DNA from: Candidatus Baldrarchaeum yapensis
GTDB taxonomy: Archaea; Asgardarchaeota; Baldrarchaeia; Baldrarchaeales; Baldrarchaeaceae
DNA length: 32,000 nucleotides
Direction of reading: 5' to 3'
NCBI GenBank assembly: GCA_016840465.1
Contig: JAEOSH010000003.1
Location: forward strand, 60,001 to 92,000
Shown: positions 13,393 to 31,007 of the stretch, piece after piece
How positions within the stretch are numbered: position 1 is the stretch's first letter
How the letters are laid out: each line of letters opens with the position of its first letter
The notes under the pieces: generated by a model
Databases searched by the model: none
What the model was told of the DNA's origin: nothing
Seen by the model: only the letters and a program-made list of their open reading frames with translations
Program-made: the position numbers and the translations under genes

Positions 13393-13438
13393 TATGCCGA
13401 CCTCCACAATTTCTGAAGAGAAGTCACCGCATTGAGAA

Positions 13439-13952: not shown

Positions 13953-13962
13953 GTGATGTGAT

Positions 13963-14400: not shown

Positions 14401-14401
14401 T

Positions 14402-14899: not shown

Positions 14900-16110
14900 G
14901 CGAGGAGAGGATGTTTAGAATTCCCGTTGGTCCTCAGCATCCCGCTCTTAAAGAACCGATAAACTTCACATTCATAGTTGATGGAGAAAGGGTCGTGGAT
15001 GTCAAGCCACGGATAGGATACAATCACCGCGGAATAGAGAAACTCATGGAATCGAAGACGTACATTCAAGGGCTTTATCTCATCGAGAGAATTTGCGGAA
15101 TATGCTCGGCGGCGCATCAGGGATGTTACGCTCAGAACATAGAGGAGGCCGCAGGCATCGAGGCACCCCCACGTGGTGTATACCTCAGAACGCTAATCTG
15201 GGAGTTAGAAAGAATTCACAGCCATCTCCTGTGGGTAGGTGTCGCATACCACGAGATAGGGTTTGATACGCTATTCATGTATGTATGGCGTGACAGAGAG
15301 CGGGTTATGGACATATTGGAGATGATATCGGGTAACAGGGTCAACTACGCAATGAACACCATAGGTGGAGTTCGTAGGGATGTTACTCCCGAAATTGTAG
15401 ACAATGCCCTAAAGGCCCTCGACTACTTGGAAGAGAGAACGAAGTACTACAAGAAGGTCACCGAAGAGGACGACAGCATCCTTGCAAGGACCGTCAACGT
15501 CGGAATACTGAAGACAGAAGATGCTAAGAGATTATGCGCCGTCGGCCCGACGGCAAGGGCATCAGGACTGAAGGTTGATGTGAGAAGAGACGACCCATAC
15601 GGTGCTTACGACGAGTTGGACTTCGACGTCGTAGTTTATGACACCTGCGACCTTACCGCGAGAGTACTCGTACGTATAGACGAGGTTCTCGAAAGTATAA
15701 AAATGTGCCGCCAGATTCTCCAGAACCTCCCATCTGGGCCCGTTAGAGTGAAATTCAAGAGAAAGGTTCCAGAAGGAGAGTCAATAAGCAAGGTGGAGGC
15801 CCCTCGTGGAGAGGACTTACACTATGTCAAGGCAAATGGCACTGAAAAACCGGAGAGGTACAAGGTGAGAGCACCTACACTTGCGAATATACCGTCGGTC
15901 TGCGAGATGCTAAAGGGAGGATACATTGCCGACATCCCAATAGTATTCGCTGGTATCGATCCCTGTATTGCGTGCACCGACAGGATGTTGTTCATAGATG
16001 TGAATACTGAGCGAAAGTGGATGTGGACGGAAGAGGAGTTGAGGATGTACGCGCGTAAGTGGTATAAGAAACATCTTAAGGAAGTGGTGAGGGAAAGATG
16101 GAAGTGCTAG
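14896..16110 (+). CDS. Group 4 energy-converting [NiFe]-hydrogenase large subunit (NuoD homolog)
   Basis: GPQHP and HRGIEK, plus both Ni-Fe motifs intact (L1 ERICGICSAAH, L2 IDPCIACTDR), followed by a C-terminal extension. Confidence 0.94.
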   Translation: MSEERMFRIPVGPQHPALKEPINFTFIVDGERVVDVKPRIGYNHRGIEKLMESKTYIQGLYLIERICGICSAAHQGCYAQNIEEAAGIEAPPRGVYLRTLIWELERIHSHLLWVGVAYHEIGFDTLFMYVWRDRERVMDILEMISGNRVNYAMNTIGGVRRDVTPEIVDNALKALDYLEERTKYYKKVTEEDDSILARTVNVGILKTEDAKRLCAVGPTARASGLKVDVRRDDPYGAYDELDFDVVVYDTCDLTARVLVRIDEVLESIKMCRQILQNLPSGPVRVKFKRKVPEGESISKVEAPRGEDLHYVKANGTEKPERYKVRAPTLANIPSVCEMLKGGYIADIPIVFAGIDPCIACTDRMLFIDVNTERKWMWTEEELRMYARKWYKKHLKEVVRERWKC

Positions 16111-17114
16111 AACTCATACTCCTTATATTGGCAACTGTGTTGTTCCCCGGTGTTGTGTTCTGCACGTATTACGCCCTATTTCTAGAGTGGGTTGATCGAA
16201 AGTTCTTTGCAAGGCTCCAGAACAGAGTGGGGCCTTGGATAACTGGGCCAAAAGGAATACTGCAGCCCATTGCGGATATAATAAAGTTACTCGCAAAAGA
16301 GGACATAACTCCAAATGGGGTTGATAGAGCCGGTTTCGTCGGTGCACCTTTCTTCGCATTAACCTTAGCGCTGTTCTCATTGATGTTCGTGCCAATAGCA
16401 TCAACAAGCGGAATACTCTCATTTAAAGGAGATCTGCTCATAGTGCTGTTCATATCCACGGTATTCGGCATCATAATAATATTCGCCGGGTACGTCTCTG
16501 CAAGCAGATTCTCGATAGTCGGCACTGCAAGAGCGGGGCTCCAGTTCGTGGGGTACGAAATCCCGCTCTTTGTGTCAGCAATTATTCCCGCACTTATAGC
16601 CAGGTCTCTGACATTGAAGGAAATAGTGGAGTGGCAGATTGCACATTACCCACTGATACTATGCTTCCCTGCAATGATAGCATTCGGAATCTTCATAGTA
16701 TGTTCCCTTGCGAAACTCGAAAAACTGCCGTTTGACATACCCGAAGCAGAAACGGAGATAGTTGCAGGGTGGGCAACAGAGTTCAGCGGAAAGAAGTTGG
16801 CCCTCTTTAGACTTTCAACGGACCTGAAAATGTTGCTTCTTGCCGGATTGGCGACTGCATTGTTCCTTGGTGGACCTGCACCCTGGGGCTTCACACTTCC
16901 GGCAGATCTAAATCCGTACCTTGCGGCGCTCATATACTCGATATGGTTCGTGATAAAGACAATAATCGTTGTGCTTATAATGTCCACGTTGAAAGCGGCA
17001 TTTGCAAGGTACAGGATAGATCAGGCACTTAGGGGCTTCTGGAGATATCTAACGCCCCTATCGCTTGCAATACTAATACTTACGCCTATAGTCGCCTATC
17101 ATTTCTACTGGTAG
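16098..17114 (+). CDS. NuoH/MbhM/EchB-like membrane subunit
   Basis: DRKFFARLQNRVGP, LQPIADIIKLLAKE, RAGLQFVGYE, PFDIPEAETEIVAGWATEFSG and ARYRIDQ. Confidence 0.94.
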   Translation: MEVLELILLILATVLFPGVVFCTYYALFLEWVDRKFFARLQNRVGPWITGPKGILQPIADIIKLLAKEDITPNGVDRAGFVGAPFFALTLALFSLMFVPIASTSGILSFKGDLLIVLFISTVFGIIIIFAGYVSASRFSIVGTARAGLQFVGYEIPLFVSAIIPALIARSLTLKEIVEWQIAHYPLILCFPAMIAFGIFIVCSLAKLEKLPFDIPEAETEIVAGWATEFSGKKLALFRLSTDLKMLLLAGLATALFLGGPAPWGFTLPADLNPYLAALIYSIWFVIKTIIVVLIMSTLKAAFARYRIDQALRGFWRYLTPLSLAILILTPIVAYHFYW

Positions 17115-17124
17115 GTGATGTAAG

Positions 17125-17481
17125 ATGAGATTACCCGCAAGGTTCTCACCCGAATTGCTGAGGCATGTGCCGCGCAAGCCGGCAACAGTAATGTATCCGT
17201 TTGTCCCCGTGGAAGCACCGGAGGGCTTCAGGGGAAAACATGAATTTGATATAGAGAAGTGCGTTGGATGCGGCCTGTGCGCAAGGGATTGCCCCTCAGG
17301 AGCAATAGAAATGGTTCCCGATGAGAGAACAAAGGGCAAAAAGCGTCCTGTGATCCACTTGGACAGATGCCTCTTCTGTGCCCAGTGCGAGGAGTCATGC
17401 CCAAGAGGGGCGATAAAGCTAACAAAAGTGTACGAAATGGCGGGCTACAAGAGGGAAGAAATGGTAGTCACCGCCCCCTGA
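17125..17481 (+). CDS. NuoI/MbhN-like 2x[4Fe-4S] subunit
   Basis: PATVMYP, FRGK, CVGCGLCARDCP and CLFCAQCEESCP. Confidence 0.93.
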   Translation: MRLPARFSPELLRHVPRKPATVMYPFVPVEAPEGFRGKHEFDIEKCVGCGLCARDCPSGAIEMVPDERTKGKKRPVIHLDRCLFCAQCEESCPRGAIKLTKVYEMAGYKREEMVVTAP

Positions 17482-17623: not shown

Positions 17624-18646
17624 GTGCTCCACATGTGTAAAAAGGAGAGTTTGTACAGGCTTGCAAAGGAAATAAAGGAATTCGTTGGAGTTTCTAGAAA
17701 GAGGCCAATCATAAGAGTGACTTCCGCATTAACCGATACCCTAGAATTTTCCGATGCAAAGATTATAAGAAGCTTCGGGGAGGATGCAGCAATACTCGAC
17801 ATAGGTAATGGAAGACTCCTCTTATTTGCGGCAGACGGAATATGGTATAAGTTGGTATCAGCGGACCCATTCTTTGCTGGATATTGCGCGGTATTGGTTA
17901 ACGTGAATGATATTGTGTGTAAAGGCGGGGATCCTTTAGCGCTGGTCGATATACTCGGCGTTCCGAAGGAGTGCGATATCGATAAAGTTGTGAGGGGAAT
18001 AATACGGGGATGCAAGAAGTTTGGTGTTTCCTGCGTAGGAGGGCATTTGCACCCGGATCATCCGATCCCCGAAATCTCCGCCGCAATCATAGGAGTTGCG
18101 GAATATAATAAGGTGATATTCAGCGATCTTGCAAGACCCGGTGACCTAATAATCATAGGGATAGATCTGGACGGGAAGTTTCATGAAAAGTTCAAATTGG
18201 CGTGGGACACAACATCGCACAAGTCTCCTAAGCAGATCAGAGATATGTTCCAAGCAATGTATATAATAGCGGACGAGGGACTAGCAACCGCAAGCAAGGA
18301 TATAAGCAATCCTGGAGTCCTCGGATCTCTCGGGATGTTGCTCGAAGCAAGCCAAGTTGGCGGATACGTGTATCCTGATAAGATACCTATTCCGGAAAAC
18401 GTGTCAATATATACATGGGTCAAGACGTACCCCGGATTTGGGGTTGTGCTCACATCACCCGAGGATCTTGCAAATAAATGTGTGAAAATACTGGAAGACC
18501 ATGGAATATCAGCATCCATAGTCGGAAAGGTGATCTCTGATCCTCTTCTTCTCCTAAAAAGCGATAATGAAATGGCTGAGGTCTTTAACTTCTCAAGAGA
18601 CAAAATTTCGGGGAGACCTAACAGAGGGCAATTAAAACAAATTTAA
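17624..18646 (+). CDS. AIR-synthase/PurM-fold protein, methanogenesis marker 2-like
   Basis: FGEDAA, LLFAADGIW..L..ADP..AGYCAVLVNVNDI, VGGHLHPD, IDLDG, WDTTS, KDISNPG.LG.LGMLLE and YPGFG. The start may be the TTG at 17651 after AAGGAG. Confidence 0.8.
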   Translation: MLHMCKKESLYRLAKEIKEFVGVSRKRPIIRVTSALTDTLEFSDAKIIRSFGEDAAILDIGNGRLLLFAADGIWYKLVSADPFFAGYCAVLVNVNDIVCKGGDPLALVDILGVPKECDIDKVVRGIIRGCKKFGVSCVGGHLHPDHPIPEISAAIIGVAEYNKVIFSDLARPGDLIIIGIDLDGKFHEKFKLAWDTTSHKSPKQIRDMFQAMYIIADEGLATASKDISNPGVLGSLGMLLEASQVGGYVYPDKIPIPENVSIYTWVKTYPGFGVVLTSPEDLANKCVKILEDHGISASIVGKVISDPLLLLKSDNEMAEVFNFSRDKISGRPNRGQLKQI

Positions 18647-18654
18647 ATTTAAAA
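18642..18654 (+). promoter_or_regulatory. TATA box of the tRNA gene
   Basis: tttaaatttaaaa, with TTTAAA at 18648-18653 about 24-29 nt upstream of the mature tRNA 5' end. Confidence 0.6.
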
Positions 18655-18676
18655 TCATATAGATAAATTGGGCCGT

Positions 18677-18771
18677 GGGCCCGTGGCCTAGTCTGGATAG
18701 GGCGCCGGCCTCCGGTCAAATTGTTGGGAGAAAGCCGGAGGTCCCGGGTTCAAATCCCGGCGGGCCCGCCA
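18677..18771 (+). tRNA. tRNA-Arg(CCG) with a 17-nt intron at 37/38 (18716-18732) and encoded CCA
   Basis: Acceptor GGGCCCG/CGGGCCC, anticodon stem CCGGC/GCCGG, T arm CCGGG-TTCAAAT-CCCGG. Bulge-helix-bulge: CTCC pairs with intronic GGAG, with two 3-nt bulges and an intron hairpin CAA-attg-TTG. Confidence 0.96.
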
Positions 18772-18837
18772 CGCAATATAGAGCTCATCATCGGCCATTT
18801 AAATACTTGAACGAAGCTATGCAGATGAGGTACTTAT

Positions 18838-19674
18838 TTAAGGATATGCGAAGATCCACGTTCTAGTTCTAATAATTCTATAACCAAGTCTCCTGTAGAC
18901 CCTTATAGCGGGCTCGTTACCTACCTCTACGTGGAGGCCTGCAGGGATGCTCGAAGCCATCGCTTCCCTTGTCAACGCTGAGGTTACGGCCTTAGCAAAA
19001 CCCTTTCCTCTGTACTCTTTCCTCGTGAATACACCACCTATTACATGGATTTGTGGAAGGGTTATGTATCTCGCAGCTATAGAGGCAAGAGCATTATCGA
19101 TTATTACACCATAATGGGTGTACTCTCTAATGATTTCTCTGGCCTCATCCACGCTCATCTCTGTCCCCCTTTCCAACTCCAAGTCCCTATATAGGAGTGC
19201 ATGCTCCTCCTTCAGCCTCACAGCCATCCTTTCAAGGGGACTAGGCCTGAAATTTTCTGGATCACAGATCATATCATGGAACTCCTCGACATTAAACCTT
19301 TTAAAACCGAGACTTCTAAAGTGATCGGTAATCATTTCTATATCGCTAGAAGTGCTATTATATAGCTGTATATCCGCCATCTTACTTGGAGAGATCTTGA
19401 TTTCCAATATTATGTCGCTAGTAGGATTCCATATGTGGATCTCGTAAATATCTTGAATAGTGAACCTACCACCATGCCATATGAGGGCATAGGACTTGAT
19501 GTCGTCATGCGAAGCAAGCAATAATACCTCGGTTTTATCAGGCTCACGCGTGAGGTAGTAGGTGGCGTAGCAGTGTGCTGATAAGGGGTCACTCCTACAG
19601 AGATCGCTTAGTGCGTTCATCAATCGATTTTGGGCAGAAAGTTGCAAGCCTTTAAATCTAAGTACGGTATTCAT
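18838..19674 (-). CDS. GNAT-family acetyltransferase (C-terminal GNAT domain, N-terminal accessory region)
   Basis: IGGVFTRKEYRGKGFAKAV (motif A) and NEPAIRVYRRLGY (motif B). Confidence 0.88.
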   Translation of the reverse strand: MNTVLRFKGLQLSAQNRLMNALSDLCRSDPLSAHCYATYYLTREPDKTEVLLLASHDDIKSYALIWHGGRFTIQDIYEIHIWNPTSDIILEIKISPSKMADIQLYNSTSSDIEMITDHFRSLGFKRFNVEEFHDMICDPENFRPSPLERMAVRLKEEHALLYRDLELERGTEMSVDEAREIIREYTHYGVIIDNALASIAARYITLPQIHVIGGVFTRKEYRGKGFAKAVTSALTREAMASSIPAGLHVEVGNEPAIRVYRRLGYRIIRTRTWIFAYP

Positions 19675-20180: not shown

Positions 20181-21119
20181 TTAAATTTTCACCCAGATTT
20201 CTTTAATCTTTTCGAGCAGAGGTTGCGTACTTATTGCGTGTAGATGTAAGCATAACTGGGTACGAGGATTTAATCCCAAAACTAGTCCTATTAACTGGCT
20301 GAGGTGGAGAACGGGTATTTGAAAATCTATCTTCCCACTTTTGTACAGATCTCTTTGGCAAATATCAAGCCTGTACATACACGCAGGGCACCACACGACT
20401 ATCATATCTGCACCGACTCTATGGATACTTTCTAACTTCCTTATGCATATATTTTCCGATAACTCGTAATGGACTCGTGACTGTATGCCGGATCCCCCGC
20501 AACACAAGTTTTTCTCCGAGTAATCCACGACCTCGGCCCCTAAATCGCTTAATAACTCGTCTACAAATCTTGGGTTCTTGTGGTCATCGAATTTCCTGAA
20601 CATCAACTCGCGACGATAATGACATCCATAATGCACTGCAACTCTCAGCCCTTCTAGCGAGAATCTCATCCGACGCAGAATTTCATCCTTAAATGCATAA
20701 AACATCTCAGGTACATGGAAGATGTCAACATCTAAGTCGTTTACATCATCGGGAGTCCGACCAATTATCTCAGCTATCCTCCGAGCCAGATCCTCGTTAT
20801 TACTTAGTTCTCGAAGAGCATGATTAAACGCAGTGTAGCATGCGTTACAAACAACAAGTACTGCCTTGCAAGCGAGACTCTTTGCTAGGAGCATATTTCG
20901 GGCGCAGAGGGAAACCATGACTTCGGGTGGCGACATATTCCAAAAGAATGTGGGAAAGCCGCAACATGTCTGGTCATCTGACATCAGGAAGGGTATGTCG
21001 AGAAACTTGAGCACAAAGTACGTGGCCACCTCTATCCCAGGATGGGCCTGCACGCAAGGCCGGAAGAGGAAGAAGGGCACCGTCTCTCTAATAATGCTGA
21101 AGTCCCTATCATTAGACAT
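20181..21119 (-). CDS. hdrB: Divergent heterodisulfide reductase subunit B paralog
   Basis: RPC..AHPGIE, CCGFP, CNACY, HYGCHY, CCGGSG and CPACMYRLD: all ten CCG cysteines are present. Confidence 0.88.
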   Translation of the reverse strand: MSNDRDFSIIRETVPFFLFRPCVQAHPGIEVATYFVLKFLDIPFLMSDDQTCCGFPTFFWNMSPPEVMVSLCARNMLLAKSLACKAVLVVCNACYTAFNHALRELSNNEDLARRIAEIIGRTPDDVNDLDVDIFHVPEMFYAFKDEILRRMRFSLEGLRVAVHYGCHYRRELMFRKFDDHKNPRFVDELLSDLGAEVVDYSEKNLCCGGSGIQSRVHYELSENICIRKLESIHRVGADMIVVWCPACMYRLDICQRDLYKSGKIDFQIPVLHLSQLIGLVLGLNPRTQLCLHLHAISTQPLLEKIKEIWVKI

Positions 21120-21645
21120 TTCTACTCACCTTTTTCATGTATTCTAAGGCTTCTGACTTCTCAAATATGCGCTTAACGTCTCTAAGCGCATCTTCTGAAA
21201 CAGACCTTGGTGGTATACCGACCTCCCTCTGGAGATTTATCAGATTATCTGTTAGCGGAACAGAAAGCCCCGTTTCCATGATGTTTTCCGCGAATTTTAT
21301 TATCTTGCTCATCTTTAATAGCGTGTTTATGTCCTGTAAGAGCACGCCAGCGTATCTGAGATTTATTATGAACAACGCCGGGTTTATCGACCGCGGGCAC
21401 TTCATCGCGCATTCAAAACACAGCAGGCAGTCCCAAATGTTCTCACGTTCAAATATATCACCTAATGAGCATAAAAGGAAACGCCCGACGATCCTTCGGA
21501 TATTAAAGTTGGAAAAGCGTGCCGCTGGGCAATCGCCGACGCACATCCCACACTGGTAGCAGGTTTCTATATTGCCCGCTCTTTTTCTCAAGTCCTCCTT
21601 TATTGCCCGTTCCACGGATTCGGGGATCGTCTGCGATCCTCTCAA
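21112..21645 (-). CDS. hdrC: Divergent heterodisulfide reductase subunit C paralog
   Basis: CYQCGMCVGDCP and WDCLLCFECAMKCP. TTG start; overlaps the hdrB paralog by 8 nt. Confidence 0.87.
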   Translation of the reverse strand: MRGSQTIPESVERAIKEDLRKRAGNIETCYQCGMCVGDCPAARFSNFNIRRIVGRFLLCSLGDIFERENIWDCLLCFECAMKCPRSINPALFIINLRYAGVLLQDINTLLKMSKIIKFAENIMETGLSVPLTDNLINLQREVGIPPRSVSEDALRDVKRIFEKSEALEYMKKVSRNV

Positions 21646-21825
21646 TACACTTCACACCTTAAGGGGGCGTCGTGATATAGTTACATAACGCAATTTAAAT
21701 AATATGGCATGATTGAAAGTATGCTTAGCGGAATATGAGGCGATTTGCGTGATTACTCTCGCATGTACAAAGTTTTTCGTAGGATCTCCAAGAATTTGTG
21801 AGAGAAGATTATAGGAGGTGTCCAT

Positions 21826-22221
21826 TTGTCAATTTTCAAATACTTAAAGCCAAAAATCACGTATAGGGTCATTATAGCTAGAATGCGTCCGAAAGAGGAA
21901 CGTTCCGAGTACGATAGACTCTCAAATGGATATATGGAAATTGCCGCAGTTGCATATTTTAATCCGAGTGATTACGACTCCCTGATAGGTAAGGAGGGTG
22001 GTAATGTTAAGGTGAAGGGCAGGGGAGGGGAGGTAGTACTTAAACCGCTAAAGGACGAAAGAGTTCCCAAGAACACAATAATCATACCGCCGGGACCTTG
22101 GGCTAATGCGTTGATCGATGAGAGTGGCCATGGCGGCATTCCTCATTTTAAGTCCTTAAATGTCGAAGTGATGGTTGTCAAAGAGCCCGTTACCAAGGTA
22201 GAAGAGATTTTAAAAAGGTGA
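21826..22221 (+). CDS. fwdD: FwdD-like molybdopterin-dinucleotide-binding subunit (divergent)
   Basis: FNPSDY...G.NVKV....GEVV, IIIPPGPWANALI and GIPHFK. TTG start after a GGAGGTG SD. Confidence 0.8.
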   Translation: MSIFKYLKPKITYRVIIARMRPKEERSEYDRLSNGYMEIAAVAYFNPSDYDSLIGKEGGNVKVKGRGGEVVLKPLKDERVPKNTIIIPPGPWANALIDESGHGGIPHFKSLNVEVMVVKEPVTKVEEILKR

Positions 22222-22225
22222 TGAT

Positions 22226-23776
22226 ATGTCATCTGGAGCGCCTGAAAAGCTTATTATAAAAGGCGGCGTGGTCGTGGATCCGATTAATGAAATTCGAGGA
22301 GATAAACTCGATATTTTCGTTTCTAATGGAAAGATTTGTGAAGAATTCGATGAAAAGAATGCAAAGATAATAGATGCGGCTGGAAACATCGTTGTTGCCG
22401 GGGCCATCGACCCTCATGCTCATCTCATCACAACAGGATCATTTCTGAGATACTTGGTTCCTGTAGCCCGCAAAGCACCAACTTATGAAATAATAAGAGA
22501 GTATGTGAGGCTGGGATGGACGACGATATCGCTGGTCGGTCCCTCGATTCCCGAAGTACTGCATGTACACACGATCTTACGTAATATTGGTTTCATGGAT
22601 TACGCGATATTTCCCCGCATCGACAATGATCAGATGTTTCTTTCTCTTGTCAGAACGCTGGACATCGCCGGACTTGCGACCTATTTGAGCATCATCGCTA
22701 AGAACTTACAAACGCTCGGTTTTTACATGGTACCGCCTGGCATCCTAGAGGGACAGGTCGCAGGACAAGATATAAAATCCTTGAAAGAAAAAATCAGAGT
22801 GCTGGACATCTCTCCCCTCGAAGCAATTATGGCACTTTTCGATTCCATAAAGAGAATAGGGTCTTTTGTTCCGGTGCAAATAGAGGCGCCTGGACTGACA
22901 AATAGCCCCATCGAAGAATTAAAGGAGATAATTGACGTACTTGGTGATGCAAGTATATTTGTGCCTCATTTATCGTATCATCTTCTGGGAGAGGACATCA
23001 GCACTGAGGAATTGCTGAAGCTTTTCGAGGGTGGCAAAATCTTCGGGGACATCGGAGTGTGCGTAGATAGAAGTATTTCGGTAGCGCCCATAAAAAGGGT
23101 AGATGGATACAAGAATATACGGTGGTTTGCATCTTATGCTTGTGAAATGGAATCGTTTTCCCTCTATGGTCTTTTGGACGAAGAGTTTGCAGAGAAGCAG
23201 TCTTATGAAATTCTCAAAAACGCCTTAATGCTAGCAATTAAGGGAGGTAGGAAGGATAATTTGTCAATTTCAGGAGATATTCCACTATGCTCAGAACCTA
23301 AAGACCTTGCGATATTTATGTGTTCAATTCTTAGTAAGGAGTGCAGAAAGGAGGTTATAGGTCGGCATGCCACAGATGACCTGTCAGCATTACCGGATGT
23401 CAATCTTATAGACGTCATACAAATGACCAGGGCGTCTCCTGCTAAAGCTTTAGGAATCGTAGAGAAAAAGGGACATTTAGGAATCGGCGCAGATGCAGAT
23501 ATCGTAATCTATGACTTTGACATAGAGAGGCAGGACCCGTCGAGAGACTGGAAGGCATTCATGAAAGCGCTCCTGAAGCCGAAATATGTCATAAAGAGTG
23601 GTCAAGTAGTAGTGGTGGACGGCGAAATTACGAGTTCCGCCAATTCTTCTCCCATAATTGGCCGGGCAAAAGATATCGACCAAAAAGAGTTCGAAGAATT
23701 TATTAACAGAGTGAGGAGAACCACAGGCCTTTACTACTCTTGCGTCGTTGAGAATAGATACAGAAGTGTCATGTGA
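22226..23776 (+). CDS. fwdA: FwdA-like amidohydrolase-fold subunit with an altered metal site
   Basis: IIKGG.VVDP.N, IDPHAH, GWTT, MTRASPAKALG..KGHLGIGADADIVIYD and YVIKSGQVVVVDGEI. Colinear with FwdA but divergent in the middle. Confidence 0.8.
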   Translation: MSSGAPEKLIIKGGVVVDPINEIRGDKLDIFVSNGKICEEFDEKNAKIIDAAGNIVVAGAIDPHAHLITTGSFLRYLVPVARKAPTYEIIREYVRLGWTTISLVGPSIPEVLHVHTILRNIGFMDYAIFPRIDNDQMFLSLVRTLDIAGLATYLSIIAKNLQTLGFYMVPPGILEGQVAGQDIKSLKEKIRVLDISPLEAIMALFDSIKRIGSFVPVQIEAPGLTNSPIEELKEIIDVLGDASIFVPHLSYHLLGEDISTEELLKLFEGGKIFGDIGVCVDRSISVAPIKRVDGYKNIRWFASYACEMESFSLYGLLDEEFAEKQSYEILKNALMLAIKGGRKDNLSISGDIPLCSEPKDLAIFMCSILSKECRKEVIGRHATDDLSALPDVNLIDVIQMTRASPAKALGIVEKKGHLGIGADADIVIYDFDIERQDPSRDWKAFMKALLKPKYVIKSGQVVVVDGEITSSANSSPIIGRAKDIDQKEFEEFINRVRRTTGLYYSCVVENRYRSVM

Positions 23777-25076
23777 GTTTTTTGAATTTCCCCCGCTCTA
23801 TAAGTCTTCTTATTCCTATTTTCGATATCTCGTCCTCTAGACGCTTTAACCTCTGTTGTAACTCGTCTTTGACATCTTCAGGTACACTTGGAACTTCTCG
23901 TAACTCTTCCGCTGGAATTCTCTCCTCAATTTCAATTTTCGCATACCGCTGATGCTTTGGTGTTTCACGATTGATAGTTGCATCTATTATTGCTCTTTTC
24001 CTAGACCCTGCCCACAGAGATGGAACCTCCGGATCAATAATGTTCACCGATGTTATCTCGACTTTAATTATATTTTCCGGGCATGCTCTCTCACAAGACC
24101 CGCAGAATATGCATAGACTCTCATTAACGGCTATCTTGCCTTCCCTTTCTGGGTCCTTTGGAATATACCAGCAATTTACGGGACATATGTTTATACAGGC
24201 CTTACAACCAAGCGGATCGCACTTCTCTATATGGAAAAGCTTTATCTTTCCCTCGAAGCGCTTTTTTACCTCAATGGCGTTTCTGGGACAAGTATTGGTA
24301 CACCATCCGCAGTAAATGCAGTTTTCCTCGTTTATAACCACGTCTCCCGTGATGCGTGGTATTTCTATTTCTCTTTCAACTGGTGTTATGCACTTCACCT
24401 CTATTGCCTCATCAGGACAAATCTCTGCACAGAGGCCACAAAAATCACATTTCTCCAAGTTCACACTTATTGAGGAGGCAAAAGTGAGATCTGAGGGATC
24501 CGGCTTTTTCCACTCAATTACTATTGCATCGCACAATTCTGCACAAATACCACAAAATGTGCACTTTTCTTCGTTTATTTTTATTTCACCTTCGATTTTT
24601 TCGGGCATCTTCTTATATCTTACCAGATCTTCCTTCTTTTTAAGTTGAATTCTGACCTCTATACACCTCGTTGGGCAAATAGTCTCGCAAATCCTACAAG
24701 GAATGCACTTCTCTTTATCAATTCTTATACTTCCTACAATCCTCGGATACTCTTTCAGTGTCTCGATTCTCTGACCATTTATTTCGAAAATTATCGCATT
24801 GATAGGACAGATTTCGGCACAAAGACCGCAAAACTGACATTTATCTTGATCAAAGGTTATTTTCGCAAATTTTCCATCCATTTTCCCTGTAGCTATCTGG
24901 GGTATCGGTCCAAGAGAAATAGCACCCGTTGGGCATACCTCTACACATAATCCACATCCGACACACGTGTCCGTATTGTAAATTAGCCTTTTCTTATAAT
25001 TACGCCCAATCCACGTAACTATCATTTCGTTCTCCGTGAAGTCCAATAATATTTGGGGAGAAAACTCATCCGGCAC
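23769..25076 (-). CDS. fwdF: FwdF-like polyferredoxin (8 x [4Fe-4S] motifs)
   Basis: Eight CxxCxxCxxxC motifs, one with the FwdF-typical CDPLGCKAC insertion. The GTG start overlaps the hdrA 3' end. Confidence 0.88.
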   Translation of the reverse strand: MPDEFSPQILLDFTENEMIVTWIGRNYKKRLIYNTDTCVGCGLCVEVCPTGAISLGPIPQIATGKMDGKFAKITFDQDKCQFCGLCAEICPINAIIFEINGQRIETLKEYPRIVGSIRIDKEKCIPCRICETICPTRCIEVRIQLKKKEDLVRYKKMPEKIEGEIKINEEKCTFCGICAELCDAIVIEWKKPDPSDLTFASSISVNLEKCDFCGLCAEICPDEAIEVKCITPVEREIEIPRITGDVVINEENCIYCGWCTNTCPRNAIEVKKRFEGKIKLFHIEKCDPLGCKACINICPVNCWYIPKDPEREGKIAVNESLCIFCGSCERACPENIIKVEITSVNIIDPEVPSLWAGSRKRAIIDATINRETPKHQRYAKIEIEERIPAEELREVPSVPEDVKDELQQRLKRLEDEISKIGIRRLIERGKFKKLT

Positions 25077-27447
25077 TTTTCATCACCAACTCGGAACCTA
25101 TCGGACCCAACTTCTTGAGTTCTTCAACAAACTCCCTGACTATGTTTGCGAATCTCTCTCCTTCGGATGCCGAAGTGCTTGCGATTTTCAATCTGCGTGG
25201 ATTAATCCCCACATTCTCAAGATACTTTTTGAGCGCAGAAATTCGTCTCTCGGCCTTTGAAAAACCTGTCCTGTAATGGCAATCCTGAGGATGACAACCA
25301 ACCACAAGGACTCCATCAGCTCCCGCCTTAAACGCCTCTAATATCATGAGGGGACTGACCCTTGCTGTGCACATGACCCTTATCGGTCTAATGTTGGTTG
25401 GGTATTGTATTTTTGTGGTTCCTGCGAAATCAGCAGCCGCATAACCACACCAATTGCATAAGAATGCAACTATGAGGGGGAATTCGCATTTGTTTTCCAA
25501 TGTTGCATGTATTTGGGCAATTATCTGTTGATTTGTGAAGTAAGGCATATCTAACGCGCCTGTGGGACAAGCGGCAACACAGGCGCCACATCCCAAGCAG
25601 GCACTTGAGTTTATGATAACCCCTTTCTCTTTATCGAATGTCAAAGCCCCCCAATCGCAGGCCTCCTCACAAAGCCTGCATCGCTTACATAGATCTGGAT
25701 TATACGTCGGGACGTAGGGATCCAATTCTATTTTTTCGTGTAGCACAAAGTTCGCTGCATCGAGTGCGGCAGATTTGGAGTGTGCAACCGTGTCCTGAAT
25801 GTCCTTAGGACCTTGAATTGTACCCGCAATGTAAATTCCCTGTATCATGGTCTCTGAAGGGGCAAGCTTCGGATGCCGCTCGAGGAGAAACCCATCAGAG
25901 GATTGAGAAATTCCTAGCATTCGTGCCAAGTCCTCGGTATCAGAGGGAGGAACCAGTCCCACGGACAATACCACGAGATCAGCATTTATTTCCATGATTT
26001 CCCCAGTAAGCGTGTTCTCTGCTCTAACTATGAGATCATCGCCGTTTTCATTTGCGGTGACCGAACTCGCCCTACCTCTTATTATCTTTATTCCGAAATC
26101 TCTCATTGCTTTCAGCAAGAACTCCTCATACCCCTTTCCATACGTTCGTATATCCTGGAAGAGTATGAACACCTCGGCATCAGGTATCCTTTCCTTAATG
26201 CAAATAGCCTCCTTTATGCTGGCCGTACAACAGATCCTAGAACAATAGGGGTTGCCTACGCTTTCGTCCCTACTCCCAACACACTGGATGAACACGATCC
26301 TTCTGGGTTCCTTTCCGTTCGATAACCTGACCACACGTCCGCGCGTTGGGCCACTGGGGCTGAGCAACCTTTCGAGTTCTAGTGATGTTATAACATCGGG
26401 ATACCTTCCGTAGCCGTACTCGCTCTTAAGTCGGGCATCAAAGGTTTCATAACCCGTGGCCACAATAATTGCACCAACATGAATCCTTATCCTTTCTGGC
26501 GTTTGATTGAAATCTATTGCATCGCGTTCACACGCATCTTCACAGTTTCTACAACCTATGCAATGATCTGGGTCTATCACCGCGAGCAGAGGGACTGCTT
26601 GCGGAAACGGTAGATATATTGCCTTTCTTGGCCTCAGTCCCATGTCAAACTCGTTAGGGACCTCCACAGGACATGTTTTTGAACAAATTTCTATGCATCC
26701 GACGCATTTCTCCTCATTTACGTAACGTGGTCGTTTCAGTATCTCTACCTCGAAGTCCCCCGGTCTTCCCTTAATGCTTGTTACCTCCGATAACGTTAGG
26801 ACTTTTATCATAGGATGCTCCGAAACCTCGCTCATGAGAGGGGCCAGTATGCAAATTGAGCAGTCAAGAGTCGGGAAAAGCTTGTCGAGCATAGCCATAT
26901 GCCCGCCCAGCGTCGGTTGCTTTTCGACGAGATAAACCTCAATTCCGAGACTTGCAAGGGAGAGTGCAGCCGTTATTCCAGCGACTCCTCCGCCTATTAC
27001 TAGAACTCTTTTCTTCGCACGTGCGTATCTGCGCTGTATTGGGGTTAGAAGCCTTGCCTTTTCGATTCCCATCTTTATCAGAGCAATAGCCTTGTTTGTC
27101 GCGGCGGTTGGAGAATACATGTGAGGCCAAGAGCATTGTTCACGAATATTCACAAATTCTACCAGAAACGGATTCAAACCCGCCTCTTCTGCTGCTCTTC
27201 TAAAAAGTCTCTCATGAAGCCGCGGGCTGCATGCCGCTATTACAACTTTTGATAATTTTTCCTCTGCTATTTTCCTTTTCAACTCATTAAGCCCTTCCTT
27301 GCTACATAGGTACGTGTGATCCATCACGAAAACGTTGGGGGCCCTCGCTATTTCGTTTAGAACCCGCTTGATGTCTATTACTCCGGCAATGTTCGATCCG
27401 CAATGGCATATGAAAACTCCTATTTTGTCGCTGTCCATATACTTCAT
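25066..27447 (-). CDS. hdrA: HdrA-MvhD fusion (flavin-bifurcating HdrA plus C-terminal [2Fe-2S] MvhD domain)
   Basis: GVFICHCG, CSPRLHE, NIREQCSW, GGGVAG, FPTLDCSIC, inserted and C-terminal ferredoxin pairs, IQCVGSRD and CSRICC. MvhD part: FLCNWCGY, RVMCTARV, GCHPQDCHY. Confidence 0.95.
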   Translation of the reverse strand: MKYMDSDKIGVFICHCGSNIAGVIDIKRVLNEIARAPNVFVMDHTYLCSKEGLNELKRKIAEEKLSKVVIAACSPRLHERLFRRAAEEAGLNPFLVEFVNIREQCSWPHMYSPTAATNKAIALIKMGIEKARLLTPIQRRYARAKKRVLVIGGGVAGITAALSLASLGIEVYLVEKQPTLGGHMAMLDKLFPTLDCSICILAPLMSEVSEHPMIKVLTLSEVTSIKGRPGDFEVEILKRPRYVNEEKCVGCIEICSKTCPVEVPNEFDMGLRPRKAIYLPFPQAVPLLAVIDPDHCIGCRNCEDACERDAIDFNQTPERIRIHVGAIIVATGYETFDARLKSEYGYGRYPDVITSLELERLLSPSGPTRGRVVRLSNGKEPRRIVFIQCVGSRDESVGNPYCSRICCTASIKEAICIKERIPDAEVFILFQDIRTYGKGYEEFLLKAMRDFGIKIIRGRASSVTANENGDDLIVRAENTLTGEIMEINADLVVLSVGLVPPSDTEDLARMLGISQSSDGFLLERHPKLAPSETMIQGIYIAGTIQGPKDIQDTVAHSKSAALDAANFVLHEKIELDPYVPTYNPDLCKRCRLCEEACDWGALTFDKEKGVIINSSACLGCGACVAACPTGALDMPYFTNQQIIAQIHATLENKCEFPLIVAFLCNWCGYAAADFAGTTKIQYPTNIRPIRVMCTARVSPLMILEAFKAGADGVLVVGCHPQDCHYRTGFSKAERRISALKKYLENVGINPRRLKIASTSASEGERFANIVREFVEELKKLGPIGSELVMKSAG

Positions 27448-27554
27448 CTCTTGAAAATAGTGGATTGTGTGCCACCTTGTTGAAAGTAAATAAATGGAAC
27501 CATATACGTATTTCTGACACTGACCTCCGGTTCATATTCCAGAGGTGTAAGAGT

Positions 27555-28019
27555 TTGAAGCCGTCTCCTCTCGAGATATATAAACTACTTCCGAAGACAA
27601 ATTGCAAAAAATGTGGTTTGCCAAACTGTATGGCATTTGCCGTGAGATTACTGAGCGGTCAGGCAAAAATAGAGGACTGCCCCGACCTCGTAGAGAGGGA
27701 GGAGTTCAGAGAGAATTATGAAAAACTTAAGGAGTTGCTGGGAGAAAGACCAGCAGCAGAAGTATCATTACCGAGAATAGATAATGAGGAGGCATGCAAT
27801 GGATGTGGTATCTGTGTGGTGGTTTGCCCTGCGAATGCTAGGGCAGACCCGGAGGTTGGTAGCGGAAAGGGGGCATCCCGAAAGGAAGGTCTCATTTTCG
27901 TGGTTGTTAATGGAAAAGTCAAGATAATGGATATAAGTAAGTGCAGGAGACAGGAAGATTTGACAACGTGTCGTGTGTGCGAGGAGTTCTGCCCAAATAA
28001 TGTCATAAAAATAGGTTAA
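27555..28019 (+). CDS. fwdG: FwdG-like 2x[4Fe-4S] protein with an N-terminal AcsC/RnfB-type Fe-S domain
   Basis: IYKLLPKTNCKKCGLPNCMAFA, then CNGCGICVVVCPANA..PEVGSGKG and C..C.EFCP. TTG at 27555 after a GAGGTG SD (the ORF-track start at 27465 is too far upstream). Confidence 0.82.
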   Translation: MKPSPLEIYKLLPKTNCKKCGLPNCMAFAVRLLSGQAKIEDCPDLVEREEFRENYEKLKELLGERPAAEVSLPRIDNEEACNGCGICVVVCPANARADPEVGSGKGASRKEGLIFVVVNGKVKIMDISKCRRQEDLTTCRVCEEFCPNNVIKIG

Positions 28020-28041
28020 AACATAGGAGGTATGCAAAAAT

Positions 28042-29334
28042 ATGAGATCATTTCACAATGTCATATGTACGGGCTGTTCTCTCCTCTGTGATGACATACA
28101 GGTCACTGTCGAGGGCTCGCACATAAAAGAGATTTTAAACGCATGTTCAAAAGGATGCTCAAGGTTCGTTTCGGATCCAAAAGAGGGCAGATTATTGTCT
28201 CCCTTAATAAAGAGGAATGGTCGAGCCGAAAAGGCAAGCCTCGAGGACGCCGTAAAAGAGACCGTTGAAATACTAAAGACTTCCGATAGACCTCTGCTTT
28301 ATGGCTGGAGCAACTGCGTATCGGAAGCTCAAATACTGGGGATAAAAATAGCACGAAAAATCAGAGGAGCAATAGACGCAACATCCAGCTTTTGCCAAGG
28401 CGTCGTATACCTCGCAGCGTGCGAGGCAAAGGGGTATCACACAGTATCCTTGGGCGAGGTATTTAACAGAGCGGATCTACTCGTGTTTTGGGGATGTAAC
28501 CCTGCTGATGCTCATCTCAGGCACTTCAGTAGGTATACTTTCTTTCCACGTGGTAGATACAGACAAACGGGGTTTGAAGAGCGAGATAGTATCCTTATCG
28601 ACGTTAGGGAAAGCGGATCAGCAAAAATTGCAAGGACACCATTGATCATAGAGCCAGAAACTGATTACGAGTTAATACAGACAATAAGGGCGATTATTAA
28701 GGGACACGAAATTCTACATGGAAAAGTCTCCGGTGTAGACTTTGAAAAAGTAAAATCCATTGCGGATAAAATGGTCAACTCCAGATTTTGTGTAATATTC
28801 TATGGGCTGGGCCTATCCGGAACGAAAGGTACTTATAGAAACGTCTCCGCCCTTCTCTCCCTCGTTGACGACATAAACAGGAGAGGAACCCGTTGCGCAG
28901 TAATTCCTATGGCGGGGCATTTTAACATGGTTGGATTTAACAGGGTGCTCCTCGAGTTGACCGGATACCCGTATGGTGTGGACTTTCATGACGGTAGCGC
29001 TTACTGGAACCCAGGTGAAACCACCGCTTTTGATCTATTGAAAAAGGAAGAAGTCGATGCTCTCGTGGTCGTAGGTGCGGATCCTGTCTCCCACTTTCCG
29101 CGGAAAATTGCAAAGTACATATCAGAAATTCCAACTATCTACATAGGGCCTCACGTGACGCCCACCTCAGCCGTAAGCAGAGTCTCTATACCGGCGACAA
29201 TAGCCGGTATAGAACAGGAGGGGGTTGCGTATAGACTCGATGGTCTTCCGCTAAAACTTAAAAAGATAGCAGATCCGCCGGATGGCGTAATTCCCGACGT
29301 AGCCATACTTGAGGCGATCCTTAAGCGCCTATAG
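28042..29334 (+). CDS. fwdB: FwdB-like W/Mo-bis-PGD subunit with altered substrate-pocket residues
   Basis: CTGCSLLCDD...C, PLLYGWS, WGCNP..AH.RH.SRY..FPRG, GADPVSHFP, GIEQEGVAYRLDGLP. The metal-ligand Cys is in SSFCQG. Confidence 0.88.
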   Translation: MRSFHNVICTGCSLLCDDIQVTVEGSHIKEILNACSKGCSRFVSDPKEGRLLSPLIKRNGRAEKASLEDAVKETVEILKTSDRPLLYGWSNCVSEAQILGIKIARKIRGAIDATSSFCQGVVYLAACEAKGYHTVSLGEVFNRADLLVFWGCNPADAHLRHFSRYTFFPRGRYRQTGFEERDSILIDVRESGSAKIARTPLIIEPETDYELIQTIRAIIKGHEILHGKVSGVDFEKVKSIADKMVNSRFCVIFYGLGLSGTKGTYRNVSALLSLVDDINRRGTRCAVIPMAGHFNMVGFNRVLLELTGYPYGVDFHDGSAYWNPGETTAFDLLKKEEVDALVVVGADPVSHFPRKIAKYISEIPTIYIGPHVTPTSAVSRVSIPATIAGIEQEGVAYRLDGLPLKLKKIADPPDGVIPDVAILEAILKRL

Positions 29335-29356
29335 GTAACATTGCACGGGAACGAAA

Positions 29357-30319
29357 ATGAAGCTAAATCCCCCAATAAGTATTAAAGATGCTAAGAAGAT
29401 TCTGTCTGCACCGGATCAGGAGTTAAAGGCTCTCATGGAACATGCGAGGAAAGTCGCGGAGGATATCCATGGGCCGAACATTACTTTCTATGTACCAGGT
29501 AATAGCTTCCCAGCAATTTCGATAACTGGAACGAAGTGCTGGCTGCTATGTAAGCATTGTGTTGGGCATTACTTAAAGGGAATGATACCAGCAACAACTC
29601 CAGACGAGTTTCGAGAACTCTGTGTAAGACTCTGGAAAAGGGGGGCAAAGGGCTGTCTCATAAGTGGTGGTTACACACGCTTCGGTGCACTTCCAATAGA
29701 ATCTTTCTTTGAGGCAATAAAGTATGTGAAGAAAAACACAAAATTGCTACTAAATGTCCATCCCGGGTTTTTATCACGTAATTCAATAATGCGTTTGGTG
29801 CAATGCGGCATCGATGCGGCATCGATAGATGTTGTGGGAAGTGAAGAAACAACAAAACAAGTATATGGCATCAGTAAGGATCCTCAAAGCTATGATAAAT
29901 TATTATGCGAATTTAAAACGGCAGGAGTACCAATATTAGCCCCACACGTCTGTATAGGATTACATTTTGGTAAGCTACTCGGGGAACTTCATGCTCTTTC
30001 AATAATAAGGAATCATGAACCATCGGTTCTCGTATTCATAATCTTTACACCGACTCGTGGAACTCCCATGGAGGCGTGCAGTCCTCCGAACATTAAGGAT
30101 GTTATCAGGCTCATTGTAGCCGCACGTCTGATGATGCCAGGTGTTCCGATATCCCTAGGATGTATGAGACCTAAGGGAACGTATAGAAGGGTTCTAGACG
30201 AAGTGTGCATGAGGGCAGGCGTTAACAGAATAGTTATACCGAGTGGGGTTGCATTAGATGTGGCTCGCGATCTGGGCTATGAGGTGTTAAGTAAAGATTT
30301 ATGTTGTGTTTTCGCATGA
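29357..30319 (+). CDS. Biotin-synthase-like radical SAM enzyme, archaeal lipoyl synthase LipS1-type
   Basis: FPAISITG..CWLLCKHC (CxxxCxxC), GCLISGG, APHVCIGL.FG, LGCMRP and a C-terminal CC. As recalled, GC(M/A)R plus CC characterise LipS1 of the two-protein Thermococcus lipoyl synthase. Confidence 0.78.
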   Translation: MKLNPPISIKDAKKILSAPDQELKALMEHARKVAEDIHGPNITFYVPGNSFPAISITGTKCWLLCKHCVGHYLKGMIPATTPDEFRELCVRLWKRGAKGCLISGGYTRFGALPIESFFEAIKYVKKNTKLLLNVHPGFLSRNSIMRLVQCGIDAASIDVVGSEETTKQVYGISKDPQSYDKLLCEFKTAGVPILAPHVCIGLHFGKLLGELHALSIIRNHEPSVLVFIIFTPTRGTPMEACSPPNIKDVIRLIVAARLMMPGVPISLGCMRPKGTYRRVLDEVCMRAGVNRIVIPSGVALDVARDLGYEVLSKDLCCVFA

Positions 30320-30525
30320 GGCCTCGAAGACGGTTCTCCGAATAAAATAACCGCATCCGTTGGGCAAACAGCCTTACACACTCCGCATTCTAAACATGCA
30401 TCTGGTTCTTTCACAACCGCCTTTGACGGGCATCCGACAAGTTTAATTGCCGGAGGAACTGATGGACAAAGGTCTACGCACTTACCGCATCCGGAGCACT
30501 TCTCTGGTATTATGATTGGTGGCAA
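30277..30525 (-). CDS. Small 2x[4Fe-4S] ferredoxin
   Basis: CSGCGKCVDLCP and CLECGVCKAVCP. TTG start with a GAGGT SD; overlaps the radical SAM 3' end by 43 nt. Confidence 0.85.
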   Translation of the reverse strand: MPPIIIPEKCSGCGKCVDLCPSVPPAIKLVGCPSKAVVKEPDACLECGVCKAVCPTDAVILFGEPSSRPHAKTQHKSLLNTS

Positions 30526-30548: not shown

Positions 30549-31007
30549 CTACGTTTTTCCGAGAAGTTGCTTAAACTCTTTTAACAGGTCCTTGTATAGT
30601 TGCCCTCTAGAGGGAGATGGAGGAGCTTTAGGAGCTGGAGGTGGTGAGGGTTGAGGCGCTGCTGGCGGGGGTGAAGGCGTAGTGGTTTGAGAAGATTGTG
30701 TTTGTGCAGGGCTCATGGAAGCAGGTGAAGCGGATGGAGAAGGTGGAATCGTGACTTGGCTTTGAGCCCGAGGCATTGCCGGTGCTGTGGCATATTGAGG
30801 TGTAGCTTGTGGCTGGGGTGATTGTTGCGGCGATACTCTAGTTTCGAGCCCTCTCAACCTCTTCTCTATGGAATCTATCCTTTGGGAAAATTCATTGCGC
30901 ATTTCCATCATTATTTCTCCGAGTAATGGTACGATTATATTTCTAACTACCTCCAACATCTGTTCCATCACTATTTTCTGTACCCTTTTTTCTAGATCCT
31001 CGGACAT
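30549..31007 (-). CDS. Hypothetical protein: N-terminal helical/coiled-coil, Pro/Ser/Gln-rich linker, C-terminal amphipathic helix
   Basis: 152-aa ORF with an ATG start, GGAG upstream and protein-like segmental composition. It ends 23 nt before the ferredoxin start. Confidence 0.75.
   Translation of the reverse strand: MSEDLEKRVQKIVMEQMLEVVRNIIVPLLGEIMMEMRNEFSQRIDSIEKRLRGLETRVSPQQSPQPQATPQYATAPAMPRAQSQVTIPPSPSASPASMSPAQTQSSQTTTPSPPPAAPQPSPPPAPKAPPSPSRGQLYKDLLKEFKQLLGKT

Follow-up and report, generated by a model that had tools for sequence, protein, structure and literature searches.

A ten-gene block in the genome of Candidatus Baldrarchaeum yapensis encodes, side by side, subunits of the heterodisulfide reductase (Hdr) type and subunits of the formylmethanofuran dehydrogenase (Fwd) type. 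Supercomplexes of these two enzymes are central to current work on bifurcation-driven CO2 fixation in anaerobes, and the block is read here as a second, non-canonical form of them, which appears to have given up CO2 as a substrate. It lies in a window of 32,000 nucleotides, the whole stretch of DNA analyzed (contig JAEOSH010000003.1, positions 60,001–92,000 of the forward strand), and coordinates given without a contig name are positions in that window. The ten genes run from 20181 to 30525 with all frames open, in four tightly packed transcription units and with several overlaps between genes. Their contiguity, positions and families had been put forward in an initial annotation of the window, and all ten are found when each gene is compared by profile with curated cut-offs (TIGR, NF, and PF models).

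The Hdr part of the block is centered on HdrA2, of the flavin-based bifurcating type and with a fused MvhD (25066–27447, minus strand; NF040770, 1106 bits for a cut-off of 1100; PF02662, 174.8 bits). It matches solved bifurcating HdrA chains at 725–758 bits, and its K412 and E359 align with K409 and E356 of 5odc_A, whose equivalents are used as a bifurcation signature (PMC12054007). The end of hdrA2 is overlapped by the start of fwdF* (23769–25076, minus strand), which encodes an eight-cluster polyferredoxin (NF042909, 292.9 bits; cut-off 375) with seven CxxCxxCxxxC motifs and one variant, Cx4CxxCxxxC. On the same strand, hdrC2 (21112–21645) and hdrB2 (20181–21119) share an 8 bp overlap. HdrC2 is a 2x[4Fe-4S] subunit with two CxxCxxCxxxCP motifs (TIGR03290, 86.6 bits; cut-off 160), and HdrB2 is a divergent disulfide-reductase subunit of the HdrB type with two CCG domains (PF02754, 85.7 bits; TIGR03288, 189.6 bits; cut-off 345). 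Two stretches of it match PF02754, and both of its CCG/CxxC cysteine sets are readable. As both subunits score below the curated cut-offs for the CoB-CoM enzyme, their putative disulfide substrate is left open and is not assigned to CoB-CoM.

The Fwd part is encoded on the plus strand. It comprises FwdD* (21826–22221), a small pterin-capping subunit of the Molydop_binding type (PF01568, 29 bits; NF042908, 66.6 bits; cut-off 175); FwdA* (22226–23776), an amidohydrolase-fold subunit with a degenerate binuclear metal site (TIGR03121, 184.5 bits; cut-off 392.75); and FwdB* (28042–29334), the W/Mo-pterin-type subunit (TIGR03129, 480.4 bits; cut-off 327.8). The gene before fwdB*, taken initially for fwdG, is indeed present (27465–28019; start codon at 27465, 27477 or 27555), and it is a fusion rather than a plain FwdG: a PF04060 FeS domain (55.5 bits) precedes a FwdG-like 2x[4Fe-4S] domain (Fer4), and the C-terminal half of the fusion aligns to the organism's own canonical FwdG. 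This three-cluster FeS-FwdG fusion is called FeSFd below. The nearest relative of HdrB2, at 35% identity, is an Asgard HdrB that adjoins FeSFd. The last two genes encode a LipS1-type lipoyl synthase (29357–30319, plus strand, 22 bp downstream of fwdB*; NF053742, 270.1 bits; cut-off 230) and a small 2x[4Fe-4S] ferredoxin of the Fer4 families (30277–30525, minus strand), which is a singleton in neighborhood clustering and whose adjacency to the cluster is not conserved. The iron-sulfur wiring, described at first as intact, is so: the eight motifs of FwdF* and the [4Fe-4S] motifs of FeSFd, HdrA2, and MvhD are all present. Equally, no FwdC, MvhAG or FdhAB is found among the annotated open reading frames (ORFs) of the block, as the initial annotation had stated; FwdC passes its cut-off solely on another contig (C56:69844–70611), where the gene adjoins a canonical FwdA.

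The host genome measures 2.27 Mb and is 96% complete, and no McrA is found in it. It carries two actin-family genes (PF00022; C7:22542–23660, 439.8 bits, and C70:1317–2393, 311.6 bits), a family with no match in any of four archaeal control genomes. Its glycyl-tRNA synthetase finds its best named matches in Odin-, Hod- and Promethearchaeota, with Bathyarchaeia and Thermoprotei at similar identity; a search for profilin gave no match anywhere, controls included, and is hence uninformative. From the actin-family genes and the synthetase matches, the host is assigned to the Asgard archaea. It is an Mcr-less archaeon and not a methanogen, and the methanogen frame in which the block was first described has to be dropped.

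A canonical fwd cluster sits on contig C56, arranged as FwdF-G-D-B / HdrA-MvhD / FwdA-C together with further HdrA-like genes; its FwdB scores 647.9 bits and its FwdA 860.2 bits. A separate fwdABCD, for which the initial annotation recommended a search, is therefore present in full, and the organism holds two parallel Fwd-Hdr gene sets. That the block is probably not a CO2-fixing Fwd, as was proposed, agrees with the presence of the canonical cluster on C56. Canonical FwdB and FwdA are also present in all five of the other FwdB*-bearing genomes checked. The C56 cluster (C56:52000–72000) contains an HdrA-MvhD fusion of 837 aa, a separate MvhD and an HdrA-like frame of 1029–1054 aa, so the organism has several HdrA types. 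A FwdB-family search of the genome returns FwdB and FwdB* only, with no FdhA-like frame, whereas the same search in three other Asgard genomes also returns frames of 677–691 residues, taken as FdhA-like. Three NiFe large-subunit genes are found: one of the group 3b sulfhydrogenase type, the group 4 gene of the window, and one more. The genome encodes Fwd and several HdrA, yet no CofH, Mvh-type large subunit or FdhA-like frame is found in it.

Aligned to FwdB of M. wolfeii (5t5i_B), FwdB* retains the metal ligand Cys118 and the N-terminal [4Fe-4S] cysteines, reads SSFC-Q-G in place of SVC-H-G (His119 to Gln), and reads PM-A-GHFN in place of PM-R-GHYN (Arg288 to Ala291). Both the His and the Arg are present in all 17 canonical FwdB sequences compared. 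With these 17 as reference, FwdB* keeps 50 of the 57 near-invariant positions (88%), and four of its seven changes (positions 119, 121, 291, and 296) fall within the two active-site motifs. The role of the Arg in the CO2/formate pocket is well established for formate dehydrogenases (FDH). The His next to the Cys has been proposed as an active-site gate in a review of the Fwd/Fmd enzymes (PMC11656701). Judged by this alignment, the His and Arg with which FDH and Fwd enzymes bind and activate CO2/formate are both missing from FwdB*. On the curated FwdB model its 480.4 bits stand against 647.9 bits for the organism's canonical copy, and public records annotate both FwdB* and its Methanosarcinaceae relatives as FwdB.

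The subunits that accompany FwdB* have changed as well. FwdA* retains the HxH pair, one later His and the Asp, and is without the carboxy-lysine (the Lys column holds Y, with M adjacent) and without the IHxH histidines. In the enzymes studied so far, the four His, the Asp and the carboxy-lysine of FwdA are perfectly conserved (PMC11656701); with the residues found in FwdA*, the canonical di-zinc site is predicted to be unable to form. In FwdD*, ARMRPKEE stands where TGRxxxQG would be expected, and the PWAN motif is retained, as seen against three comparators only. Of the claim that A, B and D all carry motif substitutions, the part on FwdB* and FwdA* is borne out by alignment, and the part on FwdD* rests on these three comparators. 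The broader statement that the scaffold is conserved and the chemistry changed fits what is seen: the Fe-S cysteines are kept, and the His and Arg of FwdB* and the metal-site residues of FwdA* are replaced. A fold model docks FwdA* on FwdB* with an ipSAE of 0.91, against 0.00 for the best of three controls; the ipSAE mark is reached by 58 of 80 solved complexes and by 2 of 110 mismatched pairs. Contact agreement between runs is at least 48%, and the partner pLDDT at least 79. Because Fwd complexes have already been solved, this result may reflect mere likeness to them.

Are these changes a peculiarity of one genome? In a library reduced to clusters of 50% identity, FwdB* represents itself, with no other match above 43% identity. 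A related-locus search with six sequences returned canonical FwdB in 76 of 80 loci and an Arg-less form in the other four. In a quick tree of the top matches the Arg-less sequences form a clade of 29 rows (SH-aLRT 96), and in a more careful one a single branch with support of 100/99, involving one label change, divides 32 FwdB* from 17 canonical FwdB. The organism's own canonical FwdB falls within the canonical side, while the FwdB* of the window, without its Arg, stands on the other, which is the result of the alignment and tree called for initially. FeSFd can serve as a marker of the family: at E <= 1e-10, a threshold that also admits matches to the FeS domain alone, matches occur in 243 of the 400 genomes sampled from the phylum, and it is matched in 50 of 61 sampled genomes of the NCBI-named Methanosarcinaceae. 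For the neighborhood analysis, ORFs were clustered from 65 loci, 62 of which contain FeSFd (42 Asgard and 20 Methanosarcinaceae); the family names used for the coded genome groups are inferred ones. FeSFd is followed by FwdB* in 38/42 Asgard and 20/20 Methanosarcinaceae loci, and the FwdD* cluster is present in 29/42 and 19/20, respectively.

Across this family the four cluster cysteines are retained in all FwdB* aligned, the Arg is absent from 61/61 rows examined, and Cys118 is retained in 48/61. At the active site, the window shows the signature CQ/A. CH/A is typical of the sister family and of two others, CQ/G of the largest Asgard family, and CH/I of Borrarchaeum together with two more families; the Methanosarcinaceae have CQ/V or CL/V. 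FwdA* co-occurs with Cys118 in 20/20 loci of four families. It is degenerate in family f8 also; in the largest Asgard family (f9) all His and the Lys are kept, and the catalytic Asp has become Asn, followed by Tyr or Phe instead of His (15/16). In Borrarchaeum, His119 is present and the FwdA site is intact, and the Methanosarcinaceae loci have neither FwdA nor FwdC beside FwdB*. The substitutions are thus not unique to this genome, a possibility that the initial annotation had raised, since the loss of the Arg is common to every row. From the aligned sequences, the changes appear to be family-wide and not the product of decay. A duplicated fwd/hdr cluster drifting toward pseudogenes might be suspected from the high divergence of FwdA* and from the fact that no dN/dS is obtainable for this lineage. 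Such drift is hardly credible: the ten genes are closely packed with unbroken frames, these changes characterize a deep clade whose gene order is conserved across phyla, FwdB* is otherwise highly conserved, and the block is identical in assemblies from four samples.

The association with Hdr extends beyond the window. Borrarchaeum has the same six-gene synteny (FwdD*, FwdA* / polyferredoxin, HdrA2 / FeSFd, FwdB*), and the HdrA2-polyferredoxin pair lies divergently upstream of FeSFd in 13/42 Asgard loci and 12/20 Methanosarcinaceae loci, as it does in the window. FwdF* belongs to the same BLAST cluster as the polyferredoxin adjoining HdrA2 in Methanosarcinaceae. HdrC2B2 adjoins in the window and in four Asgard genomes of different families (G002, G316, G006, and G303), and also in L167, from the genome with the nearest relative of HdrB2, whose FwdB* has lost Cys, His and Arg; at least five Asgard families show this adjacency, and in one case a single operon holds the genes. 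In the sister family of the window's order (L183; G002:C6:115000-134999, 2148–10673) the whole system is co-directional, with frames overlapping or abutting, in the order CooT, FeSFd, FwdB*, HdrA2, FwdF*, HdrC2, HdrB2, CooC-like ATPase. An ORF between fwdF* and hdrC2 in this genome ("c157") was considered and rejected: it has no similarity to FwdD* and is probably spurious. The block sought in relatives following the initial annotation is therefore found, as the six-gene synteny in Borrarchaeum and as the HdrA2-polyferredoxin adjacency in Asgard archaea and Methanosarcinaceae, and the Fwd-like module is genomically coupled to HdrA2-polyferredoxin and HdrB2C2 in several lineages.

Other genes recur around the cluster. 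In L183 the system is flanked by genes for a CooT-like nickel chaperone and for a P-loop ATPase of the CooC/NifH type, and a CooC-like gene directly follows FwdB* in two other Asgard families, where FwdB* is without Cys118. In the largest Asgard family (L185–L195, L218–L222) a NifX-like gene (PF02579) and two MinD-type ATPase genes with inserted ferredoxin domains stand upstream of FeSFd-FwdB*-FwdD*-FwdA*, and a gene for an Mrp/NBP35 Fe-S carrier is divergent from the cluster; these genes may form a metallocofactor-maturation set. A DUF2099 gene comes after the FeSFd-FwdB*-FwdD* trio in several Methanosarcinaceae loci, and also in Borrarchaeum and Sifarchaeum.

Compared with the known Hdr-Fwd architecture, the block is alike in that HdrA (with MvhD), HdrBC, a polyferredoxin wire, a FwdG-type ferredoxin and subunits of the FwdB, FwdD and FwdA folds are encoded together, with intact [4Fe-4S] motifs and with the bifurcation-signature residues of HdrA2 kept. 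It differs in having neither a donor module (Mvh or Fdh) nor FwdC, in a FwdB* without the His and Arg, in an incomplete di-metal site in FwdA*, in the extra PF04060 domain on FwdG, and in a host that is Mcr-less and has a separate canonical Fwd-Hdr cluster. From these features the block is best described as a variant of the Hdr-Fwd architecture whose CO2/formate pocket appears to have been specifically dismantled, in a form that is ancient and widespread.

The closest counterparts come from Methanosarcina. The window's HdrA2, which passes the HdrA2 model, and its polyferredoxin, which falls in the same BLAST cluster, recall HdrA2B2C2 of M. acetivorans and its operon-linked polyferredoxin MA2868/MA2867 (PMC5296606). 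For that HdrA2B2C2 the donor was shown to be F420H2, which is doubtful in the window's host, where no CofH was found. The fwdG2B2D2 type (PMC2838876) is alike too: FeSFd, FwdB* and FwdD* are consecutive, with the Cys kept and the Arg lost, in 20/20 Methanosarcinaceae loci, 12 of which are adjoined by HdrA2-polyferredoxin. These versions (L223–L241, L031) differ from that of the window in having no FwdA* and no HdrC2B2 beside FeSFd; instead, FeSFd-FwdB*-FwdD* are usually preceded directly, in the same direction, by genes for thioredoxin and for the catalytic subunit of ferredoxin:thioredoxin reductase (FTR), the latter in 15/20. FTR is a different [4Fe-4S]-dependent disulfide reductase. The family is probably the "fwdG2B2D2" beside "hdrA-pfd" named in M. 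acetivorans, an identity drawn from annotation names and family-wide presence rather than from the M. acetivorans record itself. The 2010 study reported the fwdG2B2D2 cluster as constitutively transcribed and proposed no function for it (PMC2838876). The label of a candidate new system consequently does not stand: the FeSFd-FwdB*-FwdD* core beside HdrA2-polyferredoxin is widespread in Asgard archaea and Methanosarcinaceae and was named in 2010 (PMC2838876). The family is old, widespread, and annotated but uncharacterized.

What, then, might such an assembly do? The favored reading, to which we give a probability of about 0.6, is that this Mcr-less Asgard archaeon has in the block a second Fwd2-Hdr assembly of non-canonical type, whose FwdB*/FwdD* pair most likely turns over a different substrate. 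HdrA2-MvhD, HdrB2C2, FwdF*, FeSFd, FwdB*/FwdD* and FwdA* would form one complex, in which the flavin of HdrA2 would split or merge electron pairs between the disulfide site of HdrB2C2 and an iron-sulfur wire running through the polyferredoxin, FeSFd and the cluster of FwdB*. FwdB*/FwdD* would no longer make formate for formyl-methanofuran and would act on another substrate at the retained Cys-ligated W/Mo center, with FwdA* as a docked structural subunit. The initial suggestions that this substrate might be a sulfur compound or an aldehyde, and that the nearby group 4 hydrogenase might be the sink for ferredoxin, are guesses. Taken by itself, the proposition that FwdB* still turns over a non-CO2 substrate has, on its sequence, somewhat better than even odds. 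A narrower version is offered tentatively, at distinctly less than even odds: FwdB*/FwdD* and FeSFd would be a living non-CO2 enzyme with W/Mo or another metallocofactor, serving as the low-potential electron sink or the missing electron-donor module of a disulfide-reducing machine built on HdrA2-MvhD/HdrB2C2 (or on FTR-thioredoxin). In the donor role, FwdB*/FeSFd might feed electrons to the MvhD domain.

Several observations weigh against the favored reading. Cys118 has been lost in 13/61 FwdB*, from five or more Asgard lineages, and these sequences are still within HdrA2-polyferredoxin clusters, so that what the whole family has in common may be a structural or electron-transfer role rather than catalysis. 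The FwdA* of the window keeps only 68 of 181 canonical near-invariant positions (38%), the fewest of the 20 FwdA* examined, and could, by that measure, be on its way out. No electron-donor module (Mvh, Fdh or F420H2) is identified for the Hdr systems of the host and none lies within the block: the 96%-complete genome has no CofH (FO synthase), and no Mvh-type (group 3c) large subunit is among the three NiFe large-subunit genes found. Contigs of the same population from four samples are ~100% identical over the block, with 0–2 differences per gene, and give no dN/dS estimate. The loci counted were taken from best-scoring matches, and related genomes are not independent. Finally, genes that lie side by side need not encode a physical complex.

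The loss of Cys118 is also the chief argument for a scaffold, in which FwdB*, FwdD* and FwdA* would all be catalytically dead and would provide an Fe-S and structural platform for HdrA2-HdrB2C2-polyferredoxin, coupling ferredoxin or polyferredoxin to disulfide reduction. The role would be like that of NuoG in complex I, of FhcB in the Fhc complex, or of the cofactor-less molybdopterin-like subunits of Hdr clusters. Where the Cys is missing, the four [4Fe-4S] cysteines are always kept and HdrA2-polyferredoxin or HdrC2B2 is still adjacent; FwdA* is moreover degenerate in the window and in f8, carries Asn for Asp in f9, and is absent in Methanosarcinaceae. There is precedent in the "Molybdop" proteins of type II hdrA clusters of ANME and Methanosarcinales, degenerate subunits of the FDH/FwdB fold kept in their clusters after loss of the catalytic residues, the Cys included (PMC12054007), and in FhcB of the methylotroph Fhc complex, likewise kept in its cluster after losing catalytic residues (PDB 6s6y is among the FwdA matches). 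Unlike either, however, the FwdB* of the window keeps the Cys ligand and nearly all conserved positions (88% of the near-invariant ones, with the changes concentrated at the catalytic motifs), belongs to the FwdB and not the FdhA lineage, and has its own FeS-FwdG partner. The Cys-Gln pair is likewise conserved across the sampled loci of the large Asgard family (CQ/G) and the Methanosarcinaceae (CQ/V), the pterin-capping FwdD* is kept in most loci, and Cys118 is kept wherever FwdA* is present (20/20 loci, four families). A purely structural role accordingly seems unlikely, though it deserves serious weight. Quite improbable, by comparison, is an ordinary isoenzyme, a second formylmethanofuran dehydrogenase (W vs. 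Mo, for example) still reducing CO2. FwdB* does pass the curated FwdB cut-off and carries the FwdB label in public records, as do its Methanosarcinaceae relatives, and the Borrarchaeum version has both His119 and an intact FwdA site; but the Arg is missing from every member, His119 is replaced in the window, the block is without FwdC, the Methanosarcinaceae versions are without adjacent FwdA or FwdC, and the genome has a complete canonical set on contig C56.

The lipoylation genes that the initial annotation joined to the block raise another alternative. About 7 kb upstream, a module on the minus strand (9701–13407) encodes a GcvH-like protein with a lipoyl-lysine context, a fused lipoate-protein ligase, Lpl(AB), canonical-type HdrC1 and HdrB1, and a DUF2096 protein. 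Together with the block, this would make a lipoate-dependent sulfur system resembling sHdr-LbpA, with Hdr acting on a lipoyl carrier or on protein-bound sulfur. As in sHdr-LbpA (PMC6067878, PMC10332631), two HdrBC pairs, a GcvH-like lipoyl protein, a lipoate-protein ligase and LipS1 occur in one 20-kb stretch, here with one HdrA and with LipS2 elsewhere, on contig C35. Gene order differs from that system, however; HdrA2 is of the methanogen, MvhD-fused type and not a minimal sHdrA; and no sulfur-transferase genes, DsrE or TusA among them, are seen in the window. Nor are the lipoate genes conserved beside either Hdr module in relatives. LipS1 is a singleton cluster, next to FwdB* in this lineage only and in 0/64 of the other clustered loci (61 of them holding FeSFd), and lpl/gcvH stand beside hdrC1B1 in 0/29 loci with HdrB1 orthologues; three genomes of the same order are among these, and there an hdrA gene adjoins the pair instead. 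The genome also has a standard GcvPA/PB/T/H glycine cleavage set, a normal system that needs lipoylation. The sulfur system is thus very improbable, and the proposed lipoylation link gives way to an ordinary lipoate client: LipS1, whose adjacency is lineage-specific, is probably not part of the complex, and since adjacency is not conserved and the genome has a standard Gcv set and LipS2 elsewhere, the lipoate genes are neighbors and not parts of the system. In a single other Asgard locus (L201), a GcvH-like gene does occur near FwdB*, but it lies among unrelated genes.

The remainder of the window holds further features. The lipoate module lies between NuoJ/K/L/M-like membrane-arm genes (5201–9668) and NuoA/B/C/D/H/I-like genes (13581–17481). 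With the NiFe motifs RICGICSAAH and DPCIAC, the Nuo-like large subunit is that of a group 4 hydrogenase, as had been recognized at the outset. At 17624–19674, an AIR-synthase-like gene scores 365.3 bits for the "methanogenesis marker 2" cut-off of 365, and this in an Mcr-less genome. The gene matches the sll0787 family as well and adjoins a GNAT acetyltransferase gene, recalling the fused MSMEG_0567 family; at ~9 kb downstream of FwdB*, same-strain contigs carry a second AIRS-like gene. Just past the block (30549–31007, minus strand) is an orphan of 152 aa with a helical N-terminus and a long Pro/Ser/Gln/Ala-rich tract, which matches no family and whose place next to the cluster is not conserved. 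A 91-aa protein (1217–1492, plus strand), encoded immediately after glycyl-tRNA synthetase, has a weak likeness to the Molydop_binding/CDC48_N barrel (25 bits, below the cut-off).

A second form of Hdr-Fwd is thus found in most sampled genomes of several Asgard families and of the Methanosarcinaceae. Labels of "formylmethanofuran dehydrogenase subunit B" in Asgard archaea and Methanosarcinales do not all denote CO2 reductases, which has consequences for how the Wood-Ljungdahl pathway is reconstructed. How do Mcr-less Asgard archaea feed or use a bifurcating flavoprotein of the HdrA2 type, with apparently no F420 synthesis and no Mvh or FdhA-like gene found? The question can now be put to the test, and the roles of the HdrA2-linked polyferredoxin and of "fwdG2B2D2" become testable in genetically tractable Methanosarcina. 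If the narrower version, with a living non-CO2 enzyme as sink or donor module, is true, the block would represent a new functional class of Hdr supercomplex, conserved between Asgard archaea and Methanosarcinales; the polyferredoxin linked to HdrA2, long an orphan, and the fwdG2B2D2 genes of Methanosarcina would gain a physiological role; and the recurring CooC-like, CooT, NifX-like and MinD-ferredoxin neighbors would point to an unusual metal center.

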